From Phycisphaera mikurensis NBRC 102666 (GTDB taxonomy: Bacteria; Planctomycetota; Phycisphaerae; Phycisphaerales; Phycisphaeraceae): 32,000 nt of DNA. The notes beneath the pieces were generated by a model that was not told the origin of the DNA, did not search any database, and saw only the letters and a list, made by a program, of their open reading frames with translations. The position numbers were made by a program, and so were the translations under genes. This document shows positions 1 to 28,310 of this stretch, one piece after another. The stretch lies in assembly GCF_000284115.1 (NCBI RefSeq), contig NC_017080.1, positions 2,970,001 to 3,002,000 of the forward strand, given 5' to 3'. Position 1 is the stretch's first letter, and every line of letters begins with the position of its first letter.

Positions 1-1228
<1,228 letters not shown>

Positions 1229-1314
1229 GGGCAGAGCCTAAGAACCCGCCGCTCCTCCAGCCGCGGGCTCCCGAATCCGGCACGACCGGGGGCCGGGTGC
1301 CACGCGGGTGCGCG

Positions 1315-1470
1315 CTAGCGGTGATCCCCGAGTTTCCTCAGGGCTCGCCGGCAGAGCCCGTGGAGCTGCCGGACGGCGAGATCGAGCTCGGTCGACAGCT
1401 CGAGCATCGATTTGCCCCCGAGGAAGCGGCCCACGAGGATCTTCCGCTCCAGCTCGGTCAGTCTTTCCAT
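1315..1470 (-). CDS. small helix-turn-helix protein resembling sigma-70 region 4 only (51 aa; start uncertain, track ORF extends to a GTG at 1665)
   Basis: MERLTELERKILVGRFLGGKSMLELSTELDLAVRQLHGLCRRALRKLGDHR follows the ECF-sigma region 4.2 pattern (LxxxERxVLxLRFxxGxSxxEIAxxLxxSxxxVxxxxxRAxxKL). No region-2-like sequence lies upstream. Codons 1315-1470 are about 86 % G/C-ending versus about 74 % for the 1471-1665 extension, which favours the ATG at 1470. No clear Shine-Dalgarno sequence. Confidence 0.5.
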   Translation of the reverse strand: MERLTELERKILVGRFLGGKSMLELSTELDLAVRQLHGLCRRALRKLGDHR

Positions 1471-1726
1471 GACGGGGTCCGGGTGCTCTGGCGTGATGGA
1501 TGCGGGACAAGGAGAGGAGGATCCAACGCCAGCCGGTGCGTTGGGCCGCGTCGGCGGGCCGACGGGATTCGCGGATCGGCGGCGTTTCGGGCCGTTCCGC
1601 CCAGCGGTCCGCGGCGGTGTGGCGGCCGGCTCGAGAGCAGCGGGCCGCTCGTTCGCGGGAGACACGGAGGCACGAGAGGATACCTCGAAAGAGGCGGCCG
1701 GAGCGGGGCGGAGCGGCAGGTCGCCC

Positions 1727-2432
1727 GTGGCCGCGAGAGCGGAGCGGCGACGCCGCTCTGTCTGCTTGTGCGCGAGGGAGCTGGATCGCGGCTCGGACAG
1801 CGTGGCGTCGCCACGCAGCTACCGCGGCCAGGCTGGCTTCGAGAGCTGAGCGGCGACGCCGCTCTGTCTGCTTGTGCGCGAAGGAGCTGGATCGCGACTC
1901 GGACAGCGTGGCGTCGCCACGCAGCTAGCGCGGCCAGGCTGGCGGCGAGAGCGGAGCGGCGACGCCGCTCTGTCTGCTTGTGCGCGAAGAAGCTGGATCG
2001 CGGCTCGGACAGCGTGGCGTCGCCACGCAGCTAGCGCGGCCAAGCTGGCTTCGAGAGCTGAGCGGCGACGCCGCTCTGTCTGCCTTGTGCGCGAAGGAGC
2101 TGGATCGGCGGCTCGGACAGCGTGGCGTCGCCCTGCAGCTACCGCGGCCAGGCTGGCGGCGAGAGCGGAGCGGCGACGCCGCTCTGTCTGCTTGTGCGCG
2201 AAGGAGCTGCATCGCGACTCGGACAGCGTGGCGTCGCCACGCAGCTACCGCGGCCAGGCTGGCTCCGAGAGCTGAGCGGCGACGCCGCTCTGTCTGCTTG
2301 TGCGCGAAGGAGCTGGATCGCGGCTCGGACAGCGTGGCGTCGCCACGCAGCTACCGCGGCCAGGCTGGCTCCGAGAGCGGAGCGGCGACGCCGCTCTGTC
2401 TGGCTTGTGCGCGAGAGAGCTGGATCGCGGAC
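1727..2432. repeat. tandem array of about 6.5 units of 106 bp with a 212-bp higher-order alternation, non-coding
   Basis: The unit motif GAGCGGCGACGCCGCTCTGTCTG starts at 1742, 1848, 1954, 2060, 2168, 2274 and 2380. Spacings are 106 bp except one of 108 bp caused by two 1-nt insertions. Each unit contains the perfect palindromes GAGCGGCG-A-CGCCGCTC and GCGTGGCG-T-CGCCACGC. The left edge is degenerate (about 1715-1741); the right edge is the mnmG stop codon at 2433. Confidence 0.95.
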
Positions 2433-4265
2433 TCAGGCGTCGCGGCGGACGGCGATCGAGAGCAGCATCACGTCGGTGGGGTTGACGCCGGCGAGGCGAC
2501 CGGCTTGACCGAGGGTCGCGGGGCGGAATCTGTTCATCACGTCGGCGGCCTCGCCGCGCAGGCCGGTGACGCGGCCGAAGTCGATGCCGGCGGGCAGTGG
2601 CTCGTCCTCACGCTCGGCAAGCGCCGCCTGCTGGCGGTCCTGCCGGGCGATGTAGCCGCCGTAGAGGGCTTCGGCGTCGGCGTGCCGCTGCAGGTCCGGC
2701 CGGCCGGCGAGATCGCCGGATCCGAGCAGCGCGCGGTCGGCCTCGAAGAGCCGCCAGCGCTCGTCGCCGACGGTGCCGATCTCCCGGCCCAGCGCGGTGA
2801 GCCTGGGCGCGGCGTTGTCGGCACGGAGCGAGAGCCGGTGCTCGGCCCGGCTGGTGAACATCCGGTACGGCTCGCGTGGGGTCTTGGTGACGAGGTCGTC
2901 GAGCATGACGCCGATGTAGGCACGATCGCGGCCGAGCCGGAAGGGCTCGTAGCGATCACTACCTTCGGCCGACGCCCACCGCGCCGCGTTGACGCCGGCG
3001 ACCAGGCCCTGCCCCGCCGCTTCCTCGTAGCCGCTGGTGCCGTTGATCTGGCCCGCGAGCAGAAGCCCCGGGAGGCGCTTGGTCATGCACGTGGCGTCGA
3101 TCTGGTGCGGCCAAACCATGTCGTACTCGACGGCGTAGCCGGGCTTCTGGATCTCGGCGTGCTCGCAGCCGGGCAGCCGCTTCACGACCTCCGCCTGCAC
3201 CTCGGCCGGTAGCGAGGTGGAGATGCCGTTGCAGTAGATGGCGTCGTCTCGGAGCGACTCGGGCTCCAGGAAGACGTGGTGGCTGGTGCGGTCGGCGAAG
3301 CGGACGACCTTGTCCTCGATGCTCGGGCAGTAGCGTGGCCCGCTGCTGGCTTCGATGCTGCCGTTGAACATCGGCGCCCGGTGGAGGTTCGCCCGGATCA
3401 AGCCGTGCGCCGCCTCGTTCGTGTGCGTCATCCAGCACATCGCCTGCGGGAGCCGGGGGAAAGCATCGGGATCCGTGCGCCGGCTGAAGGGCTCGGGCTC
3501 GTCGTCGCCGGGTTGCTCCTCCAGGCCCGAGAGGTCGAGGCTGCCGCGGGCGAGCCGCGGCGGGGTGCCGGTCTTGAGCCGGCCGAGCTCGAAGCCGAGC
3601 CGCGCCAGCTCGGCGCTGATCCCGTTTGCCACGCCCTCGCCGACGCGGCCGCCCTGGGTCCTCGCGTCGCCGGTGTGCATCAGCGCCCGCATGAAGGTTC
3701 CGGTCGTGAGCACGACGGCCCCCGCCCGCAGCAGGAAGGTCTTCCCGGCGTCGGCCACGCGGCCGAACGCACCGCAGCAGGAGGGGTCGGGTGCCCCGGT
3801 CACCGGCTCGGTGGTCCGGCCGAAGACGCCGACGCAGCGGCCCTCCTCGACGACCAGCTCCTCGACCAGCCCGCTCACGAACGACAGGTTCGGCCGCGTC
3901 GCCAGCAGCCGGCGGACCTCCTCGGCGTAGGCGTGCTTGTCGCTCTGGCAACGCGGGCCGCGGACGGCGGGCCCGCGGCTGCGGTTGAGCACCTTGAACT
4001 GGATGCCGGTCGCGTCGGCGACGCGGCCCATAAGGCCGCCGAGCGCGTCGATCTCGGCGACCATCTGGCCCTTGGCCAAGCCGCCGATCGCCGGGTTGCA
4101 GCTCATCGCCCCGATCCGGTCGGGGTCCATCGTCACCATCGCCACGCGGCCGCGGCTCCCGCCGCTGTCCTCGTACCGCGGCCGCAGCAGGTTGCTCGCC
4201 GCCCACGCCGCCTCGGCCCCCGCGTGGCCGCCGCCGATCACGATGACGTCCGCAGCTTCGTCCAT
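2433..4265 (-). CDS. mnmG: tRNA uridine 5-carboxymethylaminomethyl modification enzyme MnmG (GidA)
   Basis: 610-aa ORF. The N-terminal FAD fold is DVIVIGGGHAGAEAAWAAS. Family-typical blocks are present: MSCNPAIGGLAKGQMVAEIDALGG, GPRYCPSIEDKVVRF, LLAGQINGTSGYEEAAGQGLVAG and YGGYIARQ. Confidence 0.96.
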   Translation of the reverse strand: MDEAADVIVIGGGHAGAEAAWAASNLLRPRYEDSGGSRGRVAMVTMDPDRIGAMSCNPAIGGLAKGQMVAEIDALGGLMGRVADATGIQFKVLNRSRGPAVRGPRCQSDKHAYAEEVRRLLATRPNLSFVSGLVEELVVEEGRCVGVFGRTTEPVTGAPDPSCCGAFGRVADAGKTFLLRAGAVVLTTGTFMRALMHTGDARTQGGRVGEGVANGISAELARLGFELGRLKTGTPPRLARGSLDLSGLEEQPGDDEPEPFSRRTDPDAFPRLPQAMCWMTHTNEAAHGLIRANLHRAPMFNGSIEASSGPRYCPSIEDKVVRFADRTSHHVFLEPESLRDDAIYCNGISTSLPAEVQAEVVKRLPGCEHAEIQKPGYAVEYDMVWPHQIDATCMTKRLPGLLLAGQINGTSGYEEAAGQGLVAGVNAARWASAEGSDRYEPFRLGRDRAYIGVMLDDLVTKTPREPYRMFTSRAEHRLSLRADNAAPRLTALGREIGTVGDERWRLFEADRALLGSGDLAGRPDLQRHADAEALYGGYIARQDRQQAALAEREDEPLPAGIDFGRVTGLRGEAADVMNRFRPATLGQAGRLAGVNPTDVMLLSIAVRRDA

Positions 4266-4359
4266 GGGCGAGGGTACCCCCCGTGTGCCCGCCGGCGGCT
4301 CGCCGCCGCTGTCCGAAGCCCGCTCTCGGCGCTCTCCGGACGCCCCCTAGCGTGGGGTC

Positions 4360-5361
4360 ATGCCGCACCTCTCCCGCCGCACCGCGATCGCCGCCGCCCC
4401 GTTCGCCGCGCTCGCGGCCGCCGGTCTGGGGCGGGTCGCCGGCGCCCAGGAAGCCGCCGCCCCGCTGCCGCCGACGGGAAACGCCGGCGTGTACCGCACC
4501 GGCGTCGGCGCGTGGGACGTCGCCGTCGTCAGCGACGGCCACTTCTTCTTCGACCCGATGCACCCGACGCTCGGCGGCAACGTCGGCGCCGCGGCGTTCG
4601 CCGCCGCCGTCGAGGCGGCCGCCATGCCGGCGGACGGCCTCGCCCACGTCAACGCGCTGCTGGCACGCAAGGGCGACCGCGTCGTGCTCGTCGACGCGGG
4701 CGGCGGCGATGCCTTCGCGCCGACCACCGGCCGGCTGATCGCCAATCTCGCCACGCTGGGCGTCGAGCCGGCGGCCGTGACCGACGTCCTGCTGACCCAC
4801 GCGCACCCCGATCACGCCGGCGGGCTGATGCTGCCCGGCCGGGACCGCCAGCCGGCCTTCGCCAACGCCACCGTCCACGTGACCGAGGCGGAGCACGCCT
4901 TCTGGCGGAGCGGCCCGGCGCTGGCGCAGTCCGGCGTGCCCGAGGAGATGAAGGCGGCGGTGGTGAAGACGGCCAACGACGCGCTCGACACCGCCGGCGA
5001 GCGGCTCGCGATGGTGACCGACGGGGCCGAGCCGGTGGAAGGCTTCACCTCGGTGGCCTGCCCCGGCCACACGCCGGGGCACTGCGGCTACCTGCTCAGC
5101 GACGGCGACGCGACGCTGTACTTCACCGGCGACACGATCTTCTTCGCCCCCGTTCTGACCTCCCACCCCGGCTGGCACGTGGCCTTCGACACCGATCCGG
5201 CGGAGGCGGCGGCGACCCGCTTCCGCGAGATGGACCGGATCGCGAACGAGCGGCTGCGGATCGCTTCGCCGCACCTGCCGTTCCCGGCGCTTGCGCAGCT
5301 GCGGGAGGACGGGGCGGGCGGGTTCCGGTTCCTGGCCGAGCCCTGGCGCTTCGAGGCCTGA
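4360..5361 (+). CDS. Tat-exported MBL-fold metallo-hydrolase (beta-lactamase-like/lactonase-like)
   Basis: The N-terminus MPHLSRRTAIAAAPFAALAAAGLG carries a twin-arginine signal (SRRxAI plus a hydrophobic region). The HxHxDH zinc motif occurs in LLTHAHPDHAGGL, with later CPGHTPGH and GDTIFF blocks. Confidence 0.85.
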   Translation: MPHLSRRTAIAAAPFAALAAAGLGRVAGAQEAAAPLPPTGNAGVYRTGVGAWDVAVVSDGHFFFDPMHPTLGGNVGAAAFAAAVEAAAMPADGLAHVNALLARKGDRVVLVDAGGGDAFAPTTGRLIANLATLGVEPAAVTDVLLTHAHPDHAGGLMLPGRDRQPAFANATVHVTEAEHAFWRSGPALAQSGVPEEMKAAVVKTANDALDTAGERLAMVTDGAEPVEGFTSVACPGHTPGHCGYLLSDGDATLYFTGDTIFFAPVLTSHPGWHVAFDTDPAEAAATRFREMDRIANERLRIASPHLPFPALAQLREDGAGGFRFLAEPWRFEA

Positions 5362-5462
5362 GCCGGAGCGGTCGAGCGTCGCGTCGGGCCCCCGAGCCAC
5401 GTCCTCGGGAGGGTCGAGGCCGTGGCTCGGGAGAGAGCGGGGGCCGGATCCGAGGTGAGGCT

Positions 5463-6359
5463 CTACGCCTTCGGCCACAGCAGCGGCGTCGGCTCCAAGG
5501 GTGTCCAGCCGAGCTCGTCGCGCAGCACGCCGAGGTCGGCCAGCCCGCCGGGGCCGCGGAGGTCGCCGGTCACCGGGATGTGCGGAAGGAACTCCCGGGC
5601 CAGCGTCGCGGGGGCGATGCCCGCCACCGCGCGGCACGAGGCCGGGAAGTGGCAGCGGTAGCCGGGGGGCGAGCGGAGCAGCGCGGCCTCGAAGAGGCGG
5701 CAGGCGTCGTCGAGGTGCAGCAGGGCCATGCCCTCGATCAGCTCGTGGCACCCGGCGTGGAACGGCCGCCGGGGCGGGTTCCACCCGGTCCGCCCGCAGA
5801 TGCCCGGCAGCCGCAGCGCGACGCCGGCGAGCTTCGCGTTCGCGCGGCAGAGCTCCGCGAGCAGCTGCTCGCCGTGCGCCTTCGACAACGCGTAGGGGTT
5901 CTGACCCGGTGCCGCCGGGGCGTTTCCGTCCATGGGCAACCGCGGGAAGGGGCAGGGCCCCTGCGGCTCGAACCACTTGGGCCAGGCCACCATGTCCATC
6001 GTCGCCTGGATCGAGCTGGCGTACACGATCCGCTCGACGCCGTGGTCGCCGGCGGCGTAGAGCACGTTCGCCGTCATCCCCACGTTGGCCGCCAGCAGCT
6101 TCTGCCGGGGCAGGGGCTGGTTGGGGTTGGGGATGTTGCCCAGGTGCAGAACCGCGTCGACGCCGCCGCCGCTGTGGAACAGGTTGTAGACCCCCATGTC
6201 GTCGGCGAGATCGACCTGGTGCAGGGGCACGGGCAGGCCGGCGGCGTGCCGCTGGTCCGTGGCGACCACGCCGTGGCCGGCGGCGTGGAGGTGCTTGATC
6301 GCCGCCGAGCCGAGCAGGCCCGCGGCGCCCGTGACGAGGACACGCATGCGCGGGAACAT
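5463..6359 (-). CDS. NAD-dependent epimerase/dehydratase family protein (start at ATG 6359 or 6347, not the 6971 of the track ORF)
   Basis: MFPRMRVLVTGAAGLLGSAAIKHL contains the GxxGxxG Rossmann motif. ...ASSIQATM...NPYALSKAHGEQL contains the extended-SDR YxxxK catalytic motif. The upstream 200 aa of the track ORF are Arg/Ala/Ser-rich and overlap murF. Confidence 0.8.
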   Translation of the reverse strand: MFPRMRVLVTGAAGLLGSAAIKHLHAAGHGVVATDQRHAAGLPVPLHQVDLADDMGVYNLFHSGGGVDAVLHLGNIPNPNQPLPRQKLLAANVGMTANVLYAAGDHGVERIVYASSIQATMDMVAWPKWFEPQGPCPFPRLPMDGNAPAAPGQNPYALSKAHGEQLLAELCRANAKLAGVALRLPGICGRTGWNPPRRPFHAGCHELIEGMALLHLDDACRLFEAALLRSPPGYRCHFPASCRAVAGIAPATLAREFLPHIPVTGDLRGPGGLADLGVLRDELGWTPLEPTPLLWPKA

Positions 6360-6390
6360 ACCGGCGGCCTCCCGCGGTAGCCTCCGACCG

Positions 6391-7719
6391 ATGCAGGGCT
6401 GCACGCTGGGTGAGGTCGCGGAGGCGGCGGGAGCGACGCTCCACGGGCCCGCCGGCGCGGCGAATCGCCCGGCGGCGGCCTTCGGCATCGACTCCCGCAC
6501 GCTGCCCGCCGGCGGCGTCTTCTTCGCGCTCGGATCCGCGGACCGCGACGGGCACGGCTTCGCGGAAGCCACGGTCCGCGGCGGGGCCGCGGCGGCGGTG
6601 GTGCGGGACCGCTGGGAGCGGCCCGCGGCGGGGACGTACCTCGCCGTGGACGACCCCGCCGCCGCCCTGCACCGGCTGGCGGCGCGGCAGCGCGAGCGGC
6701 TTCGCGCCGGCGGCTGCCGCGTCGTCGCGGTCGGCGGCTCCAACGGCAAGACGTCGACGCGGAGGCTGATCCACCACACGCTCGCCGCCGGCGGCCTCGC
6801 CGGCACGCAGAGCCCAGCCAGCTTCAACAACCACCTCGGCGTGCCGCTGACCCTGCTCGCCGCACGCCCCGACGACGCGTTCGTCGCCGCCGAGATCGGC
6901 ACCAACCACCCCGGGGAGATCGCCCCGCTGGCGGACCTGCTCCGCCCGGAGGTGGCGGTGATCGCCAGCATCGGGGCCGAGCACCTCGGCCACTTCGGCT
7001 CGCTCGGGGCCGTCGCCGAGGAGGAAGCCGCCCTGCTGCCGGCGGTGCGACCCGGCGGCGTCGTTTTCTGCCCGCCCGAAGCCGCGGCGGCGCTGCAACC
7101 CTTCTACGACGTGGCCGAGGGCGTGGCGCTCGTTCCGGTGACCGAGGCGCGGCACGGGGCCCTCGTGCCCGCGGGCTTCCCGCTGCTTGGGCAGCACCAG
7201 CGGGCCAACGCCCGGCTCGCCGCCGCCGTCGGCCGGTGGTTCGGCCTGGACGCCGACGCCGTCGCCGCCGCCCTGTCGACGGCCACGCCCGCCCCCGGCC
7301 GGATGGAGCCGCTGCGGCTGGGCGGAGGCGCGGAGGCGGGCGGCGTCACGGTCGTGCACGACGCGTACAACGCGAACCCCGATTCCGTCGCCGCCGCCCT
7401 GCGCCACCTCGCCGCGGCCCCCGCCCCGGGCCGCCGCGTCGTGGTGCTCGGCCCGATGCTCGAGCTCGGCCGCTTCGCCGGCGACGCCCACCGCGACGCC
7501 GCCGCCCTCGCGGAGGCCTCCGCCGACCTCGTGCTGCTCGTCGGCGACGCCTGGCCGACCCCGGGCACCGACCTCGACGCCGTCGCCGCCGCCCTCGAAC
7601 CCGGCGACACCGTGCTCGTGAAGGCGAGCCGCGGCTCGGCGCTCGAACGGCTCTTCCCGCTGATCGAGCGAGGCGTCGCGTCGCGGCCGCCCGTCCGGCC
7701 ACGGGGGCCCGTGCCTTGA
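6391..7719 (+). CDS. murF: UDP-N-acetylmuramoyl-tripeptide--D-alanyl-D-alanine ligase
   Basis: Starting from MQGCTLGEVAEAAGATLHG, the ORF contains VVAVGGSNGKTSTRRL (Mur ligase P-loop), SFNNHLGVPLTLL, EIGTNHPGEIAPLADLLRPEVAVIASIGAEHLGHFGS and VHDAYNANPDS. The stop TGA at 7717-7719 overlaps the mraY start. Confidence 0.9.
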   Translation: MQGCTLGEVAEAAGATLHGPAGAANRPAAAFGIDSRTLPAGGVFFALGSADRDGHGFAEATVRGGAAAAVVRDRWERPAAGTYLAVDDPAAALHRLAARQRERLRAGGCRVVAVGGSNGKTSTRRLIHHTLAAGGLAGTQSPASFNNHLGVPLTLLAARPDDAFVAAEIGTNHPGEIAPLADLLRPEVAVIASIGAEHLGHFGSLGAVAEEEAALLPAVRPGGVVFCPPEAAAALQPFYDVAEGVALVPVTEARHGALVPAGFPLLGQHQRANARLAAAVGRWFGLDADAVAAALSTATPAPGRMEPLRLGGGAEAGGVTVVHDAYNANPDSVAAALRHLAAAPAPGRRVVVLGPMLELGRFAGDAHRDAAALAEASADLVLLVGDAWPTPGTDLDAVAAALEPGDTVLVKASRGSALERLFPLIERGVASRPPVRPRGPVP

Positions 7720-8921
7720 TCCCCTGGCTCCTCGACGCCCTGGGCATCTCCGCCTCCGACAGCTCGGCTGTCCGCGCCTTCGGCGTGTTCCGCTGGGTCG
7801 AGTTCCGCGCGGTGCTGGCGGTCGTGCTCGCCTTCGTCACGGTGGTCGCCTGCGCCCCGCGCGTGATCCGCTGGCTGATCACGCAGAAGATCGGCGACCG
7901 TCCGGAGTTCCACAACCGCGCCCTCAACGAGCTCACCCAGCACAAGAGCAACGTCCCGACCATGGGCGGCGTGCTGATCGCGGGGGCGATCTTCGGCGTC
8001 ACGCTGCTGCTGGCCGACCTCCGCAGCTTCTACGTCGTGATGGCGATGGCCTGCCTCGTGTCGCTGTGCGCGATCGGCTTCGCGGACGACTGGCTCAAGC
8101 TCACCGCGGGCCGCCGCAACGCCGCCTCGCGCGACGGCCTGCGCAGCTGGGAGAAGCTGCTGTTCCAGCTCGGCGTGGCCGCGCTGCTCGGCTGGTTCAC
8201 GTACCGCTACGGGGTGAGCAAGTTCGCCTACCTCAACGAGTTTTCGGAGATGGCGCGGTCGGTGAATCTGCCGGGCCTGAAGGCGTGGGTGCGCGAGGGC
8301 GGCGTGCTGACGCAGAACCCCGCGATGCTCGTGCTGCCGGCGGGGGCGTTCGTGCTGGTGGCGACGCTGCTGATCACCGGCTTCTCCAACGCCGTGAACC
8401 TCACCGACGGCATGGACGGCCTCGCCTCGGGCATCACCGTCATCTGCGCGTTCCTGCTGATGATCCTCTGCGTGATCGCCGGGTACCAGAGCCAGGGCTT
8501 CGTGCTCGCGAAGTACCTGCTCGTGCCGCACATCCCGCTCTCCGACGAGCTCGCCGTGGTCGCCGGGGCGATGGTGGGCGCCTGCCTGGGCTTCCTGTGG
8601 TTCAACTGCAACCCCGCCCAGGTCTTCATGGGCGACACCGGCAGCCTGCCGCTGGGCGGCCTGCTCGCGTACATCGCGGTGGTGATCCGGCAGGAGTTCC
8701 TGCTGCTGGTCGTCGGCGGGGTGTTCCTGCTGGAGATCGGCAGCGTGGTGCTGCAGGTCGGCTACTTCAAGATGACCGGCGGGAAGCGGGTGTTCCGCTG
8801 CGCCCCGATCCACCACCACTTCCACCTCACCGGCTGGACCGAGCAGCAGGTGGTCGTCCGGGCTTGGGTCGTCACCGCCCTGCTCGCCGCGCTCGCCCTC
8901 GCCGCCGTGAAGCTGCGGTGA
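7716..8921 (+). CDS. mraY: phospho-N-acetylmuramoyl-pentapeptide transferase
   Basis: A TTG start at 7716 lies in a TTGA overlap with the murF stop. LIPWLLDAL...FGVFRWVEFRAVLAVVLAFV aligns with the E. coli MraY N-terminus (MLVWLAEHL...FNVFSYLTFRAI, from memory). The blocks KSNVPTMGGVLI, GFADDWLKL, NAVNLTDGMDGLASG, GDTGSLPLGG and APIHHHF are present. Confidence 0.9.
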   Translation: MIPWLLDALGISASDSSAVRAFGVFRWVEFRAVLAVVLAFVTVVACAPRVIRWLITQKIGDRPEFHNRALNELTQHKSNVPTMGGVLIAGAIFGVTLLLADLRSFYVVMAMACLVSLCAIGFADDWLKLTAGRRNAASRDGLRSWEKLLFQLGVAALLGWFTYRYGVSKFAYLNEFSEMARSVNLPGLKAWVREGGVLTQNPAMLVLPAGAFVLVATLLITGFSNAVNLTDGMDGLASGITVICAFLLMILCVIAGYQSQGFVLAKYLLVPHIPLSDELAVVAGAMVGACLGFLWFNCNPAQVFMGDTGSLPLGGLLAYIAVVIRQEFLLLVVGGVFLLEIGSVVLQVGYFKMTGGKRVFRCAPIHHHFHLTGWTEQQVVVRAWVVTALLAALALAAVKLR

Positions 8922-9048
8922 GGCGCCCGACGCGGAAGCCGCCCCCGCAGCGTGCCGGCCACCGCGGATCCAACCCGACCGGCCGAGGACCCGACACGCG
9001 GCACGCGGAACGCCGAACGCGGCGGGCACGCTGCACTAAAACACCTCC

Positions 9049-9813
9049 ATGAGCAACGAGACGCGAGCGGCTTTGGTGACGGGGGCTTCGGCGGGGATCG
9101 GGCGGTCGACGGCGATCGCCCTGGCCGAAGCCGGGATGCGGGTGGTGGTCTCCGCGCGGCGGGCGGAAGCGCTCGCGACCCTGGTGGAGGAGATCGAGAC
9201 GGCGGGCGGGCAGGCCGACGCGGTCGTCGCCGACCTCGCCACCATCGGCGGCGTCGACGCGATGTGGTCCGAGGCCTGCGGGCTGCTGCACGGCCCGCCG
9301 GGGGTGGTGATCGCCAACGCCGGGCACGGGCTCCAGGGCGGGGTGCTGTCCTCGGACCGCTCCAAGTGGGAGAACATGATCGCGCTCAACTACACGGGCT
9401 GCGTCCACCTGATGCGGCTGGCGGCCGGAGCCCAGGCCGACGCCATCGAGGCGGACGACGCGCCCTCGGGCGACGTGGTGGTGCTCGGCAGCGTGAGCGG
9501 GATCCACGTCTCCCCCTTCTCGGGCATGTACGGCTCCACGAAGTTCGCCGTGACCGCCGCGGCCGAGGCGCTCCGCCGCGAGGTGGGTCCGCGGCGGGTG
9601 CGGGTCTCGGTCATCAAGCCCGGGATCGTGCGGAGCGAGTTCCAGGAGGTCGCCGGGTACGACGAGGAGACCTTCGGCAAGGCGGTGGCGAAGTTCGGCG
9701 ACATGCTCACGCCGGAGGACGTCGCCCGCACGATCCGCTTCGTCGTGACGCAGCCGCCCAACGTCCACGTGAACGACGTGGTGATCCGGCCGGTGGGGCA
9801 GGACTACCCCTAA
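9049..9813 (+). CDS. short-chain dehydrogenase/reductase (SDR) family oxidoreductase
   Basis: ALVTGASAGIGRSTAIALAEAG contains TGxxxGIG. NAGHG matches the NNAG-like block. GSVSG...YGSTKFAVTAAAEALRRE contains the S...YxxxK catalytic triad. Confidence 0.9.
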   Translation: MSNETRAALVTGASAGIGRSTAIALAEAGMRVVVSARRAEALATLVEEIETAGGQADAVVADLATIGGVDAMWSEACGLLHGPPGVVIANAGHGLQGGVLSSDRSKWENMIALNYTGCVHLMRLAAGAQADAIEADDAPSGDVVVLGSVSGIHVSPFSGMYGSTKFAVTAAAEALRREVGPRRVRVSVIKPGIVRSEFQEVAGYDEETFGKAVAKFGDMLTPEDVARTIRFVVTQPPNVHVNDVVIRPVGQDYP

Positions 9814-9964
9814 GACGCGCCCGGCGAGCGTCCGGACGCACTGGGTGCCGAGCATCCGGCCTCAGGAGATGCGCAGATGGTCGAGCCCCGGCGGGCGTGG
9901 CACCCCGACCCGGATTGTCTCGGGTGTCCGTCTTGGTTCGAAACGCGTCGGAGGCGCCCGGCTC

Positions 9965-10372
9965 TCAGGCCGCGGCCGCCAGCGGCGCGGCGAACCGGAA
10001 GCCGATCTCGAAGCAGACCTCGGCGCCCTCGCCGACCTGGCCGATCCGGCGGCACCAGGCGACGTTCGCGGGCGCGACGAAGCCGCGGCCGTCGTCGAGC
10101 TGCATCGCCAGCGTCACCGGCTCGCCGGTGTTCAACGCCTCGTTGTGCAGGACCGACACGCCGCCGCGGCCGGAGTTGCGGGTCATCACCTCGTGCACGG
10201 CGTGGCCGCCCGCACCGTCGGCCACGCGGAGCATGCAGGGGCGCTGCCGGTCGCTGCGTGGGACGTCGCGCGGGACGCCGCCGCGGTCGGCGGCGGTCCG
10301 CTCGCCGAGCAGCGCTTGCTCGTGGCTGATCCGCTGCAGAGCCTCGGTCCAGTCGCTTTCTTGGAGTCTCAT
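9965..10372 (-). CDS. PilZ-like domain protein (putative c-di-GMP receptor), paralogue 1
   Basis: 135 aa. It has RDVPRSDRQRP (RxxxR-type arginine cluster) followed by ...VMTRNSGRGGVSVL, which aligns to the PilZ (D/N)hSxxG block with Gly in place of Ser. GGAGGGGG lies 5' of the ATG. It is a paralogue of 10712-11230 (shared MRxxxSDxxW...RI N-terminus and beta-barrel pattern). Confidence 0.55.
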   Translation of the reverse strand: MRLQESDWTEALQRISHEQALLGERTAADRGGVPRDVPRSDRQRPCMLRVADGAGGHAVHEVMTRNSGRGGVSVLHNEALNTGEPVTLAMQLDDGRGFVAPANVAWCRRIGQVGEGAEVCFEIGFRFAAPLAAAA

Positions 10373-10411
10373 GCCCCCTCCATCGGCTCAAGGAGCCTCG
10401 CTCTGTGGCAT

Positions 10412-10748
10412 TCAGGCGGCGATGGGGCCGATGTTCACCGGCGCATCGGACTGTTTCTCGGGTGCGGCGAGCCGCACCGGCCTCCCCTGCGGGATCGGCC
10501 ACAGCGCGTCCTCAGGCGGCGATGGGGCCGATGTTTACCGGCGCATCGGGCTGTTTCTCGGGTGCGGCGAGCCGCACCGGCCTCCCCTGCGGGATCGGCC
10601 ACAGCGCGTCCTCAGGCGGCGATGGGGCCGATATTCACCGGCGCATCGGGCTGTTTCTCGGGTGCGGCGAGCCGCACCGGCCTCCCCTGCGGGATCGGCC
10701 ACAGCGCGTCCTCAGGCGGCGATGGGGCCGATGTTCACCGGCGCATCG
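10412..10748. repeat. tandem 100-bp repeat: three complete intergenic units plus the founding copy formed by the 3' end of the PilZ-like gene
   Basis: TCAGGCGGCGATGGGGCCGAT starts at 10412, 10512, 10612 and 10712. The three full units differ at only 3 positions. The first 37 nt of each unit equal the last 11 codons plus stop codon of CDS 10712-11230. The remaining 63 nt contain the hairpin GGTGCGGC-GA-GCCGCACC. Confidence 0.95.
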
Positions 10749-11230
10749 AATTGGACGCCCACGTCGAAGAGTTCGGGGTCGCGGTCGGTGACGTCCAGGC
10801 CGCGGCACCAGACGACGCGGCCGCTGAGCACCCAGCCCAAGCCGGAACCGTCGTCGGGCTCGAGCACGGCGGTGCAGGGCGTCCCCGGCCGCACGTGGCT
10901 GCCGTGGACGAAGCCGATGCCGCCTTCGCCGACGTTGCGGGTGCGGACGACGAAGGTGCCGTGCGCGTCGTCGTCGTGGCCGCTCTGGGCCGTCAGGCGG
11001 ATCATGCAGCGGAAGTCGCCGGCGATGCGGGCGTGGCTGCGGGCTCCGGTCGCCGGGGTCATCCGCTCGGCGTAGCTGCCGAGCGACTCGGTGCTGGCGC
11101 GGGTGATCCGCTCGAGCATCTGACGCCACTGCAGGTCGGAGACCCAGATCCGCATCGTGTCGACGCCGGCGCCGCCGGTGTCGAGATCGGCGTCGACGGT
11201 GCGGGTGGGGGCGGTCGAGATCTGCAACAT
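10712..11230 (-). CDS. PilZ-like domain protein (putative c-di-GMP receptor), paralogue 2
   Basis: The start MLQISTAPT... at ATG 11230 is preceded by AAGGAG 6 nt upstream (the track ORF extends to 11422). It has RSHAR (RxxxR) and, 31 aa later, RTRNVGEGGIGFV (the (D/N)hSxxG-like block with S replaced by G). The C-terminus is ...VGVQFDAPVNIGPIAA. Confidence 0.6.
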   Translation of the reverse strand: MLQISTAPTRTVDADLDTGGAGVDTMRIWVSDLQWRQMLERITRASTESLGSYAERMTPATGARSHARIAGDFRCMIRLTAQSGHDDDAHGTFVVRTRNVGEGGIGFVHGSHVRPGTPCTAVLEPDDGSGLGWVLSGRVVWCRGLDVTDRDPELFDVGVQFDAPVNIGPIAA

Positions 11231-14988: not shown

Positions 14989-16266
14989 TCAGGCCTCGGG
15001 CCGGCTGTACCGGTTGGTGGCGACGGCCAGCACCGCCTGCCGCATCTCCTCGATGGGCGTGTGGCTGCCCTCCCGCACCAGCCGCTCGATGAAGCGCTCG
15101 CGGAGGCGGAGGAACTGCCGCTCACGCAGCGTCTGCTCGATCGCGGCCTGGGCCTGGAGCAGGGTCTGGCGGTCGGGACGCTCGACCGCGGCGGCCTCCA
15201 CGAACCAGAAGCGTTCGCCGCCGCCGGGGCCGGGCTGGCCGATCGGCCCGGCCCAATCGCCGGGCTCGTCGAGCGCGGCGACCGCGGCGTCCACCGCCGG
15301 GCGCCCGAAGGGCTCGTCGCCGACGATGGTCTGCATCATCCCGCCGGTCCAGCGGTTGTCGGTCTTGGGATCGGTCGCGACCGCGTCGAAGGGCTCGCCC
15401 GCGGCGAGCCGCTCCCGCACGGATCCGGCCGCGGCCGCGTCGTCGACCCAGATCAGGCCGAGGTCGCGGGTGGCGGGCGGGTTGAAGGTCTCGCGGTTCT
15501 GCCGGTAGAAGCGTTCCACGTCGCGGCGGGTGACGTTGATGCGGGCGTTGAGGTTCTGGCGGATGTAGTTGTCGGTGATGAGGCCGTCGCGGTACTGGCG
15601 GAGCGTCTCGTCCAGCGAGATCCCCGTGGTTTCCTGCAGCTCGCGGCGGGCGACGGCGAGCGAGCCGCGGCCGTGCCGGCGGAGCAGGTCCTCCCGACGC
15701 TGGCCCACCATCACCCGCACGCCCGCCCGCTGGTTGTCGGTGAGGTTGCGCTCGGCCTCACCGAGGATCAGCGCATTGACGAGGCGTTCGCGGAGGCTGG
15801 CCTCGATGATCTCGCCGGCCCGCTCGCGAAACACCGCCGGCTCGAGCCGGCGGCCGAGCGCGGCGAGCTGCGCATCGAGGTCGGCGAGCAGGTCGTCGGC
15901 GAAGACGGGCTGGCCGTTGATCTGGCCGACCATCGCGTCGAGCACGAGCGGTCCGCCGGGAGCGGGAGCGTCCGGCGACCGGCCGGGGCCCGCGGGAGCC
16001 TCTTCGGTGTCGCCGCGCTCCGCGGGACCCGGCGGCACCGGCGGGGCGATCGCCGGCGCGGGCTCGGAAGCTAGCTCGGCCGCGGCGGATTGGACCGCGG
16101 CCAGCTCCCCCCGCTCGTCGCCGGCGAAGTCCGCCGGCCGCACCGCGCGGACGCCGGCGCCGCCGCAACCGGCCAGGAGAAGGCCGCACGACGCCACCGC
16201 CACCGCGGCCGTCGCACCCCCGAAGGAGCGCCGGCGGTTGGGGTTGGGGCTGAGCCGGATCCGCAT
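14989..16266 (-). CDS. lipoprotein with SurA-N/parvulin-like (PpiC-type PPIase-like) architecture, putative periplasmic chaperone
   Basis: The lipobox is ...AVASCGLLLAGCGG. It is followed by an Ala/Pro-rich linker and then a SurA/PrsA-like layout: VGQINGQPVFADDLL..., INVTRRDVERFYRQNRETF, and a degenerate parvulin-like block RDLGLIWVDD...AAGEPFDAVA...GGMMQTIVGDEPFGRPAVDAAVAAL. Domain assignment is by eye only. Confidence 0.5.
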   Translation of the reverse strand: MRIRLSPNPNRRRSFGGATAAVAVASCGLLLAGCGGAGVRAVRPADFAGDERGELAAVQSAAAELASEPAPAIAPPVPPGPAERGDTEEAPAGPGRSPDAPAPGGPLVLDAMVGQINGQPVFADDLLADLDAQLAALGRRLEPAVFRERAGEIIEASLRERLVNALILGEAERNLTDNQRAGVRVMVGQRREDLLRRHGRGSLAVARRELQETTGISLDETLRQYRDGLITDNYIRQNLNARINVTRRDVERFYRQNRETFNPPATRDLGLIWVDDAAAAGSVRERLAAGEPFDAVATDPKTDNRWTGGMMQTIVGDEPFGRPAVDAAVAALDEPGDWAGPIGQPGPGGGERFWFVEAAAVERPDRQTLLQAQAAIEQTLRERQFLRLRERFIERLVREGSHTPIEEMRQAVLAVATNRYSRPEA

Positions 16267-27035: not shown

Positions 27036-28136
27036 CTAACGCCGCCGGTGCCCCCCGTACCCCGCCTCACGCTCCCGCCGCTGGATGGCCTCGATGCCGT
27101 AGCGAGCCCAGGGCTTGATCTCCAGCCGCGGGAGGCCGATCGGTGTGCAGGTGTCCAGGCAGACGCCGTAGGTGCCGTCGTCGATGCGGACCAGCGCGGC
27201 GTCGATGTCCTTCAGCAGCTTGCGGTCGGTCTCCTGCAGCATGAGGTTGAACTCGCGCTCGTAGTTCTCGCTGCCCACGTCGGCCATGTGCAGCGGCACG
27301 TGGCTGTCGCCGTCGTCGTGGCCCCGGGCGGCGTCGAGCCCGGCAACGTCGCCGACCAGCGCCCGCCGGTGCTCGAGCAGCTGCTCCCGGAACGCCATGA
27401 GCCGCTTCTTGGAGATGCCGGTCTTCACCTTTCGCAGCTGCTCGGGGGTGTGCTCGCTGGCGGCACGGTCGACCGAACCGGGGCGGGTGTCGTCCGAGGG
27501 AGCGGGCTTGGGCGCGTCGCCTGCCCGCGCCGAAGCGGCCCGGCGGCCGACGGGCACCTTGTACTTCTTGAGCTCCAACGCTTTCTTCCGCTTCACCGGC
27601 TTGGTGACGGCGGTCGGGTTGAACTTGCTGCTCTTGCGGCGGGGCGTGCCGTCGGCGGCCTCCTCGGCGGGTGGGGGAGGCTTGCGACGCTTCGCCTCGT
27701 TGATTTCCAGCGGGCGCCGGCGGGTGGGCTTCTTCTTCGTTCCGGGAGCGGCGGGGAGCGTGGCCTCCACCTTCGCGGGCGTCGCCTTCTTCACGGACGG
27801 CTTCTTCGCGGCCGGCTTCTTCGCGGCCGGCTTCTTCGCGGCCGGCTTCTTCGCGGCCGGCTTCTTCGTGGTCGGCTTCTTTGCGACCGGCTTCTTTGCA
27901 GGAGCCTCCTTCGCGGGAGCCTTCTTCGACGACTTCTTCGCCGGGGGCTTCTTCGCCGGGGTGTCGGCGGTCGACGCACGCCCGCCCGTGGCCCCCGCCT
28001 TGGCCGGCCCGGCCGGAGCTTTCTTCTTCGCGACGGCTTTCTTCACCGGCGGCTTCTTGGCCGCCGCCTTCTTCGCGGGCGGCTTCTTCGCCGCCGGCTT
28101 CTTCTTCTCACCGGCTTTGGAGGGCTTGCTCGCCAA
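27036..28136 (-). CDS. DksA/TraR-family protein with a long N-terminal histone-H1/AlgP-like Lys-Ala-Pro repeat domain
   Basis: A TTG start at 28136 has AGGAAG 7 nt upstream. Roughly aa 1-230 are K/A/P-rich (AKKPAAKKPAAKKPAAKKPAAKKPSVKK...). The C-terminus ...FREQLLEHRRALVGDV...HMADVGSENYEREFNLMLQETDRKLLKDIDAALVRIDDGTYGVCLDTCTPIGLPRLEIKPWARYGIEAIQ aligns without gaps to E. coli DksA (recalled sequence ...[68 protein letters not shown]). Confidence 0.75.
   Translation of the reverse strand: MASKPSKAGEKKKPAAKKPPAKKAAAKKPPVKKAVAKKKAPAGPAKAGATGGRASTADTPAKKPPAKKSSKKAPAKEAPAKKPVAKKPTTKKPAAKKPAAKKPAAKKPAAKKPSVKKATPAKVEATLPAAPGTKKKPTRRRPLEINEAKRRKPPPPAEEAADGTPRRKSSKFNPTAVTKPVKRKKALELKKYKVPVGRRAASARAGDAPKPAPSDDTRPGSVDRAASEHTPEQLRKVKTGISKKRLMAFREQLLEHRRALVGDVAGLDAARGHDDGDSHVPLHMADVGSENYEREFNLMLQETDRKLLKDIDAALVRIDDGTYGVCLDTCTPIGLPRLEIKPWARYGIEAIQRREREAGYGGHRRR
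27798..27902. repeat. in-frame 15-bp tandem repeat x7 encoding (KKPAA)n within the DksA-like gene
   Basis: CGGCTTCTTCGCGGC occurs four times exactly (27798-27857), followed by three diverged copies (CGGCTTCTTCGTGGT, CGGCTTCTTTGCGAC, CGGCTTCTTTGCAGG). Confidence 0.9.
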
Positions 28137-28310
28137 GAGGATCTTCCTGGCCGAGATGCCGGCCCTTGGGTGTATGGTCCGACTGCGAAAGCACTTACGA
28201 AAAATGCCGGCGGCCTCCGGGGCGGCAGCGTACCCGAAACGGCCGGCGGCAACGCTTGGGAGCCTCTCGCGAGCCTCCCCGGGTCGACCGGCGGGCCCGG
28301 GGGGCGTCGG

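Follow-up and report, generated by a model that had tools for sequence, protein, structure and literature searches.

The mnmG–zwf region of Phycisphaera mikurensis raises the question of why a tandem array of paired palindromes stands between these two genes, and whether it is a product of amplification or is kept for a function. The region was analysed in a window of 32,000 bp (contig NC_017080.1, positions 2,970,001–3,002,000; GC content 73.4%; positions below are those of the window unless another contig is named), in which the array covers positions 1728–2432 and consists of 6.6 copies of a 106-bp unit. The array is probably a young minisatellite of the P. mikurensis lineage that amplified a hairpin-forming spacer after mnmG. 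This reading draws on the anatomy of the array, its recovery in two assemblies, its absence from the closest relatives, the lack of further copies where these were searched for, and palindromes conserved no better than the remainder of the unit; the tests able to point to a specific function were all negative or at background. The initial annotation of this DNA had left three readings side by side without choosing, namely an operator or nucleoprotein-assembly array, tandem structured-RNA or 3′-untranslated region (3′-UTR) hairpin modules, and a neutral minisatellite; the last is favoured here, with some room for hairpin modules in the 3′-UTR. A literature search on tandem repeats in P. mikurensis found nothing relevant.

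Tandem Repeats Finder (TRF) placed the repeat at 1734–2430 (period 106, 6.5 copies, 93% matches, score 1220), and BLAST self-matches widened it to 1728–2430. The identity between units was 93–98%, corresponding to 3–10 pairwise differences per 106 bp. The array and its units, the latter taken from the unit alignment, are as follows (no strand assigned):

1728–2432, tandem array, 6.6 copies of the 106-bp unit, downstream of mnmG (minus strand), from TRF and BLAST self-matches
1734–1839, unit 1, 106 bp, phased at CGAGAGC
1840–1945, unit 2, 106 bp
1946–2051, unit 3, 106 bp
2052–2159, unit 4, 108 bp, with two 1-bp insertions and a variant second palindrome
2160–2265, unit 5, 106 bp
2266–2371, unit 6, 106 bp
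2372–2432, unit 7, cut to about 60 bp at the mnmG stop codon

The initial annotation had described seven units of 106 bp; the period and the single 108-bp unit stood, and the copy number became 6.6. It had also placed the end of the array at the mnmG stop codon and the array itself upstream, on the same strand, of a 51-aa open reading frame (ORF) and zwf. Both statements were borne out, as the unit homology stops at 2430–2432, next to the stop codon at 2433–2435 of the minus strand, and codon-position GC calls together with public gene calls gave the minus-strand order mnmG, array, 51-aa ORF (orf51), zwf:

2433–4265, minus strand, mnmG, 610 aa, protein 100% identical to the MnmG of Phycisphaera mikurensis in JACHEL010000002.1 (GCA_014207395.1)
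1315–1470, minus strand, orf51, borderline Sigma70_r4 match, codon-position GC gene-like
2–1228, minus strand, zwf, glucose-6-phosphate dehydrogenase, cut by the window start, start codon at 1228

Two palindromes of 17 bp recur in the array. The first, P1, GAGCGGCGACGCCGCTC (GAGCGGCG-A-CGCCGCTC), was present in seven of seven units at spacings of 106, 106, 106, 108, 106 and 106 bp; the second, P2, GCGTGGCGTCGCCACGC (GCGTGGCG-T-CGCCACGC), was perfect in five of six copies, the remaining one carrying two changes, in agreement with the counts given before. The sites, with no strand assigned, were located by exact motif matching except for P2 copy 4, which came from a degenerate motif scan:

1742–1758, P1 copy 1
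1848–1864, P1 copy 2
1954–1970, P1 copy 3
2060–2076, P1 copy 4
2168–2184, P1 copy 5
2274–2290, P1 copy 6
2380–2396, P1 copy 7, nearest hairpin to mnmG on its downstream side (minus strand), 36 nt beyond the stop codon
1800–1816, P2 copy 1, inverted version of P1
1906–1922, P2 copy 2
2012–2028, P2 copy 3
2120–2136, P2 copy 4, variant GCGTGGCGTCGCCCTGC, two changes, palindrome broken
2226–2242, P2 copy 5
2332–2348, P2 copy 6

The P1 and P2 sites are spaced 58 and 48 bp centre to centre. The degenerate palindrome motif matched 17 window positions (chance expectation, 2.8), 13 of which lay within the array; the other four carried two mismatches each, which is chance level. A relation that had been overlooked is that P1 is the reverse complement of P2 in motif, G[A/C]G[C/T]GGCGACGCC[G/A]C[T/G]C. 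Together with their flanks, P1 and P2 form 36-nt arms that are 75–78% complementary and give 73-nt near-palindromes, and the unit is made of one such near-palindrome (P2, the centre GCCAG-G-CTGGC, and the next P1) plus a 33-nt spacer (33–35 nt between blocks). The blocks are, again with no strand assigned:

2222–2294, 73-nt near-palindrome given as example, 36-nt arms, 78% complementary
1796–1868, 1902–1974, 2008–2080, 2116–2188 and 2328–2400, further 73-nt blocks of the same P2–centre–P1 layout

In line with this architecture, BLAST aligned the array to its own reverse complement with 67–71% matches over 134–205 bp. For two units, the predicted folding energies were −123 kcal/mol (minus strand, z = −5.1) and −135 kcal/mol (plus strand, z = −5.4); the folds paired P1 with P2 in either of two registers of similar energy rather than forming two small local hairpins, and the P1 17-mer alone was predicted to give a 7-bp stem with a 3-nt loop. 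The two strands fold equally well; the symmetry therefore belongs to the DNA as such, not to an RNA signal of one strand. Outside both arrays of the window (the second, with a 100-bp period, is described below), 24 perfect palindromes with 8-bp arms were counted, many of them within genes, against about 16 in whole-window shuffles; because such palindromes are common in this GC-rich window, a single one is unremarkable.

Comparison with the assembly of the Joint Genome Institute (JGI) (JACHEL010000002.1, GCA_014207395.1; contig L001) showed 100% identity over positions 1–10733. That record holds 97 N within the 100-bp array and the window has none, so the window is a different assembly; the 106-bp array, identical base for base in a second, separate assembly, is therefore reproduced. 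An assembly artefact was excluded by this agreement. A short-read Logan contig (L002, SRR12223476) covers 29 bp of the 106-bp array and about 30 bp of the 100-bp array before breaking off, which is how assemblers behave at true repeats.

Several classes of element were considered and set aside. The long ORFs that cross the array have a flat codon-position GC (0.65–0.78, against a third-position GC of 0.87–0.97 in real genes here), the period is not a multiple of 3, and the 2-bp longer unit shifts the frame; a coding repeat was excluded on these grounds, and the ORFs are artefacts, as had been proposed. A clustered regularly interspaced short palindromic repeat (CRISPR) locus was rejected because the sequences between the palindromes are themselves repeated and no cas domain was present among the window genes scanned. 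An origin of replication, checked for because oriC may lie beside gidA/mnmG, was likewise dismissed: the motif TTWTNCACA (at most one mismatch) had three matches in the window against 2.5 expected and none in the array, so that no DnaA-box cluster was seen, and no switch of GC skew was present. No tRNA or tmRNA was found. Rfam returned no match at gathering thresholds and, at E ≤ 1, generic miRNA-hairpin models far below their cut-offs, so the check for a structured-RNA family suggested earlier ended without any family reaching threshold.

The same scans bear on the idea that each unit is a small-RNA gene with its own promoter, with P1 and the following TGTCTGCTTGTG acting as a plus-strand terminator. 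Tandem arrays of small-RNA genes occur in other bacteria, and the plus-strand stretch after P1 is relatively T-rich for this genome. The scan of the array region, however, gave no promoter-like site on either strand, a consensus scan of 1000–2700 gave no terminator-like site on either strand, the weak miRNA-hairpin models are all that Rfam offered, and the searches found no homologue for a covariation test. We consider this explanation extremely unlikely.

The comparison with relatives bears on the age of the array. No relative's MnmG in the protein collection exceeded 88% identity. In L005 (88% MnmG identity), L010 (80%) and L011 (79%), mnmG is followed directly by zwf, with spacers of 177, 73 and 168 bp, respectively; in L006 (83%) an IS110 transposase follows mnmG, and in L007 (88%, partial protein) the contig ends 295 bp past mnmG. 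No unit-like sequence was found after mnmG in any of these five. The parts shared by the window and the relatives are the mnmG tail and the last 30–50 bp before the zwf start (about 1203–1251); compared with L005, L010 and L011, about 1.1–1.2 kb at this place, comprising the array, a 257-bp spacer and orf51, is specific to P. mikurensis. The L005, L010 and L011 spacers have no homology to the unit, which points to a recent gain. Judged from these alignments, orf51 and the array may have arrived together. The MnmG of P. mikurensis ends in ...SIAVRRDA* and is 2–3 residues shorter than in five relatives (e.g., ...SIAVRRSSAL*); the insertion or array boundary may have taken the place of the original terminal codons of mnmG.

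Each of the spacers of L005, L010 and L011 holds an unrelated long hairpin right after mnmG (z = −8.3, −2.0 and −8.2, respectively). In L005 (7840–7981, z = −8.3) it is a perfect stem of 22 bp, each arm being palindromic in its own right (GGTGCGTC-TG-GACGCACC), in L011 (2732–2850, z = −8.2) a stem of about 35 bp built from repeats of the 8-nt GGCACAGA, and in L010 (3236–3300, z = −2.0) an A-tract/stem/T-tract hairpin. In L006 (6111–6420) there is a wider inverted repeat of the 8-nt L011 motif GGCACAGA, the first 150 nt of which fold no better than shuffles. A hairpin thus recurs after mnmG while the sequence is replaced, and the unit of P. mikurensis occupies that position.

This recurrence speaks for a second explanation, in which the units would be selected RNA hairpin modules: the array would be the mnmG 3′-UTR and at the same time the orf51/zwf leader, and would act by termination without a U-tract, by blocking 3′ exonucleases or by insulating zwf, like the clusters of repetitive extragenic palindromic (REP) sequences and bacterial interspersed mosaic elements (BIMEs) of E. 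coli. An unrelated long hairpin at the same position in three relatives seems to be maintained. The first hairpin of the array lies 36 nt past the stop codon, that is, a GC-rich stem-loop is present where a terminator would have one, a stem of about 36 bp is predicted per unit, and the 100-bp array likewise has a palindrome with 8-bp arms 33 nt past a stop codon. On the other hand, the terminator scan (1000–2700, both strands) detected no T-run behind the stems and no U-tract directly 3′ of them, and folding is no weaker on the plus than on the minus strand. The variants between units also break pairs without compensation: when the aligned units were inspected against the stem arms, the G/T alternation at unit position 8 removed an A–T pair of the long stem in the units carrying G, and no variable position, the junction dinucleotide variants and a C/G variant included, had a compensating change in its partner. 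In the relatives one hairpin is enough and nothing points to a need for 6.6, and perfect 8-bp-arm palindromes are, as noted, common in the window. Selected hairpin modules are therefore, in our judgement, unlikely, with a chance that is small and still appreciable.

The next question is whether the palindromes are conserved more than the remainder of the unit. In the alignment of the seven units, 14 of 108 columns were variable, in place of the roughly 20 substitutions and indels estimated initially. Two of these 14 fell within the 34 palindrome columns (hypergeometric P(≤2) = 0.12), and when two 17-bp windows were slid round the unit, 25 of 108 circular phases were equal or better. The palindromes had been chosen post hoc as the invariant stretches, and with only 14 variable columns the test is low-powered; within these limits, the data give no support for the constraint on the palindromes that had been suggested.

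The same result weighs on the proposal that the 13 GGCG-N-CGCC sites bind a dimeric protein, possibly the orf51 product, and form a repressosome, a centromere-like site or a boundary. Perfect 17-bp palindromes with a common core and a period of 106 bp, close to 10 helical turns, would suit such an array, and orf51 is a small helix-turn-helix (HTH) gene on the same strand as mnmG, 257 bp from the array, whose codon-position GC (0.71/0.38/0.87) fits a real gene. Sigma region 4, however, binds −35 elements as a monomer within the sigma factor, and the Pfam match of orf51 to Sigma70_r4 is borderline (24.5 bits versus a cut-off of 24.1). The palindromes are no better conserved than background and are accounted for in full as arms of the long inverted repeat, about 48 kb of the genome contains no additional sites, and the relatives have neither the array nor the ORF at this locus.

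A search in a word-indexed collection gave no relatives of orf51, and a full HMMER scan of 1.84 billion representatives gave exactly one homologue, P0122 (52 aa, 65% identity), which lies between T2SSF and GFO_IDH_MocA genes on two metagenome contigs. Only the coding part of that locus could be aligned to the window (73%), and neither GGCG-N-CGCC palindromes nor a 106-bp array were found near P0122. Because the locus of the sole homologue is without palindromes or array, there is no comparative support for binding of the array by orf51, and the operator reading that the initial annotation had built around this ORF receives none. About 70 bp upstream of P0122 stand three direct copies of an unrelated motif, TGACAC(T/C)TTTCCCGCTT (L008, 7881–7929), with an inverted copy downstream (8374–8390); their motif GCGGGAAAGGTGTCA resembles GCGGGAAAGGTGACA, a repeat that flanks a Y1_Tnp gene of P. 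mikurensis described below. From this resemblance, the small HTH gene may travel with REP-like repeats.

Taking both sides together, an operator or nucleoprotein array at this locus is distinctly improbable. The same low probability is given to a wider version, in which a dimeric DNA-binding protein or a topology enzyme would assemble on the 13 phased palindromes. The array could then be a gyrase-type BIME-2-like site, a centromere-like element, or a boundary or insulator, and would have originated de novo in a single planctomycete lineage along with the inserted 51-aa HTH gene. Binding of a protein to the palindromes would make the locus a case of a binding-site array born by minisatellite expansion; nothing was found in support of this.

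Whether the unit belongs to a dispersed family was examined at several scales. Outside the array, no P1/P2-like sites above chance were present in about 48 kb (the window, 7.6 kb to its left and 8.6 kb to its right). An exact 21-mer common to all seven units had two chance matches in 185,579 species genomes, one in an Oscillospiraceae metagenome-assembled genome (MAG; L003) and one in a Pseudomonadota MAG (L004), neither of which extended beyond 22–24 bp. In the metagenome collection there were no matches for this 21-mer or for a P2 23-mer, in the viral collection none for this 21-mer or for a second, P2-side 21-mer, and among plasmids and phages none to a two-unit BLAST query. It had been stated at the outset that the functional readings would fail if the unit were a generic dispersed REP or miniature inverted-repeat transposable element; no further copies turned up as far as tested, and a dispersed element is ruled out within the same bounds. 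Absence of further copies from the whole genome is likely.

The palindromes nevertheless have one feature of REPs, being GC-rich, extragenic, and alternating in orientation at regular spacing. On this view the unit would be a REPIN, a pair of inverted REPs, from a dispersed family that a REP-associated tyrosine transposase (RAYT) mobilises, and would here be stacked in tandem. The location at a gene 3′ end agrees with this (PMC2817692, PMC3116915, PMC3337134), as does a RAYT-like Y1_Tnp gene about 33 kb away. REPs, however, have more than 100 dispersed copies per genome (PMC2817692), and the 106-bp unit shows neither dispersal nor RAYT linkage, the whole chromosome not having been scanned directly. 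The Y1_Tnp gene is flanked by a different repeat, AAGGTGACAGCCACCGATT, absent from the window; no P1/P2-like site exceeds chance in the 48 kb, and the 21-mer matches are the two chance ones among species genomes, with none in metagenomes or viral contigs. A REP cluster is accordingly very unlikely, and RAYT-linked REPs were excluded on account of the flanking repeats of that gene.

The Y1_Tnp gene itself (PF01797, 228 aa) lies at 15898–16584 of L012, between DHO_dh and Formyl_trans_N genes, on the same contig and about 5.0–5.9 kb past the right end of the window. In its flanks (L012 15800–16700), AAGGTGACAGCCACCGATT has two copies upstream and three inverted copies downstream and is unrelated to P1/P2; gene and repeats have the layout of a RAYT with its REPs, in a planctomycete.

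How the array grew is partly recorded in its variants. The G/T variant at unit position 8 alternates in seven of seven units, and units differed on average by 6.8 positions when adjacent, by 5.5 at a distance of two, by 6.0 at three and by 4.0 at four. The alternation, and the closer likeness of units at distances of two or four, indicate that the array grew in part by two units at a time. The 212-bp higher-order repeat that had been inferred from alternating junction variants is therefore real but partial, since the TT/GG dinucleotide at the junction, preceding the G/T position, alternates in units 2–5 only.

The source of the unit was sought on both sides of the array. Its derivation from the mnmG tail, hinted at initially, did not hold: the best local alignment of tail and unit had p = 0.46 against shuffles, with 57% of real control segments scoring as high, and the in-register continuation of the unit into mnmG had p = 0.05–0.23, depending on the length used. 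An origin from the mnmG tail was rejected, the similarity not being significant. On the left, the flank at about 1623–1650 aligns with the junction and P1 region (p ~0.04, 3% of control segments as high), a borderline result from which the left flank may be an old degenerate unit. An 11-mer, TCGAGAGCAGC, occurs exactly twice in the 32-kb window and flanks the array on both sides. These features, for which no strand is assigned, are:

1623–1733, possible degenerate older unit, in register, weak (GGCCGGCT-CGAGAGC--AGCGG----GCCGCTC; p ~0.04 against shuffles)
1631–1641, 11-mer TCGAGAGCAGC, about 100 bp left of the array (exact word count)
2456–2466, other copy of the 11-mer, within mnmG and 24 bp from its 3′ end (exact word count)

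The sequence CGAGAGC is present at every unit junction. The pair of 11-mers and the CGAGAGC junctions are consistent with seeding of the array by slippage between short direct repeats; that the 11-mer copies were the repeats that seeded the duplication may be so, the observation being post hoc.

A second array in the same window offers a parallel. It lies at 10412–10748 and comprises 3.4 copies of a 100-bp unit with 97–98% identity (TRF), and the gene at its end is:

10712–11230, minus strand, PilZ-domain gene, its 3′ end repeated in every 100-bp unit

The 100-bp unit consists of the last 37 bp of this gene (12 codons plus stop) and 63 bp downstream, and contains the palindrome GGTGCGGC-GA-GCCGCACC, with 8-bp arms, 33 nt after the stop codon. 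The 100-bp and 106-bp units are unrelated in sequence. The array shows that segments of about 100 bp, made of a gene end plus a hairpin, are being amplified in this genome. In the JGI assembly (L001 3436–3532) the 97 N within it, together with a 3-bp overlap, amount to exactly one extra unit relative to the window, which is either a copy-number difference or an unresolved repeat. Apart from these two arrays, coding repeats of 15, 30 and 45 bp (CTTCTTCGCGGCCGG) were observed at 27786–28104 in a minus-strand gene (27036–28310) whose product is lysine/alanine-rich and has a histone H1-like HC2 match below threshold (32.7 bits versus 40).

For the 106-bp array we propose that a hairpin-forming spacer segment downstream of mnmG would have been amplified head to tail through replication slippage or unequal recombination, in part by 212-bp, two-unit steps, and that the long self-complementary unit and short direct repeats (CGAGAGC and the 11-mer TCGAGAGCAGC) would have favoured the process. 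The two 17-bp palindromes would be the two arms of one long inverted repeat, identical across units through recent copying or homogenisation and not on account of a protein or an RNA fold. Each unit would form a stem of about 36 bp when transcribed with mnmG. If the array has a function, it is probably the one common to 3′ hairpins in general, namely to terminate or protect the mnmG mRNA and to shield orf51 and zwf from read-through, and the additional copies would be redundant.

A minisatellite origin agrees with the head-to-tail, high-identity copies and with their non-coding location, between the mnmG stop codon and orf51. Several observations weigh against it. The seven perfect P1 copies and the two invariant runs (23 and 21 columns) with the palindromes at their centres would equally be expected under constraint. 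Copy-number polymorphism is the hallmark of a minisatellite; one strain is represented in the databases, and its two assemblies have the same copy number. The array ends within 2 bp of a stop codon and its period is about 10 helical turns, both of which have to be taken as tidy coincidences. Neither a donor nor a single-copy ancestor of the unit was found, the likeness of the left flank being borderline. Finally, for the genome as a whole, the lack of other copies depends on a single exact 21-mer scan of a collection, which did not recover the window's own array, either because the source region is masked in the collection or because the genome is absent from it.

As a minisatellite, the 106-bp array is a candidate variable number tandem repeat (VNTR) marker for Phycisphaera mikurensis, and it shows the amplification of hairpin-bearing 3′ spacers in a genome of 73% GC, where two unrelated arrays of about 100 bp period, both starting at gene ends, lie within 9 kb. 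Short-read assemblies break at these places: the Logan contig stops in each of the two arrays, and the gap of the JGI record falls in the 100-bp one. The recurrent, unrelated hairpins after mnmG hint, as far as genome comparison can indicate, at a U-tract-free way of transcript ending or insulation in Phycisphaerae.

Among known systems, hairpin-only (“I-shaped”) intrinsic terminators have been proposed for high-GC bacteria. The array resembles them in having a GC-rich perfect stem 36 nt past the stop codon and no U-tract, and differs from them in that there are 13 copies of the hairpin, its stability is the same on either strand and the consensus scan gave no terminator. The 100-bp array of the same window shares with it the period of about 100 bp, the start at the 3′ end of a minus-strand gene, the palindrome shortly past the stop codon (33 nt) and a next same-strand gene just downstream; it is unlike it in its unrelated sequence, in the last 37 bp of the gene being carried in every unit, in its 3.4 copies and in having one palindrome per unit.

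The BIME-2 elements of enterobacteria and the REPIN clusters of Pseudomonas also have alternating GC-rich palindromes, stand in tandem at gene 3′ ends and form long hairpins (PMC2817692, PMC3116915, PMC3337134, PMC3333891), and by analogy an effect on the mRNA 3′ end would be plausible here. In contrast to REPs, which have more than 100 dispersed copies and flank their own RAYT, no other copies of the 106-bp unit were found and the nearby RAYT-like gene has a different repeat.

Bacterial minisatellites or VNTRs, such as those of the mycobacterial interspersed repetitive unit (MIRU) type, differ in that the 106-bp unit is not found at many loci, is almost entirely self-complementary, has a length that is not a multiple of 3 and is without a small overlapping ORF. 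The array has in common with them head-to-tail units of about 50–100 bp between same-strand genes, high identity between units, a two-unit higher order and absence from the closest relatives. The pattern of growth in two-unit steps is shared, finally, with satellites that evolve by unequal exchange.

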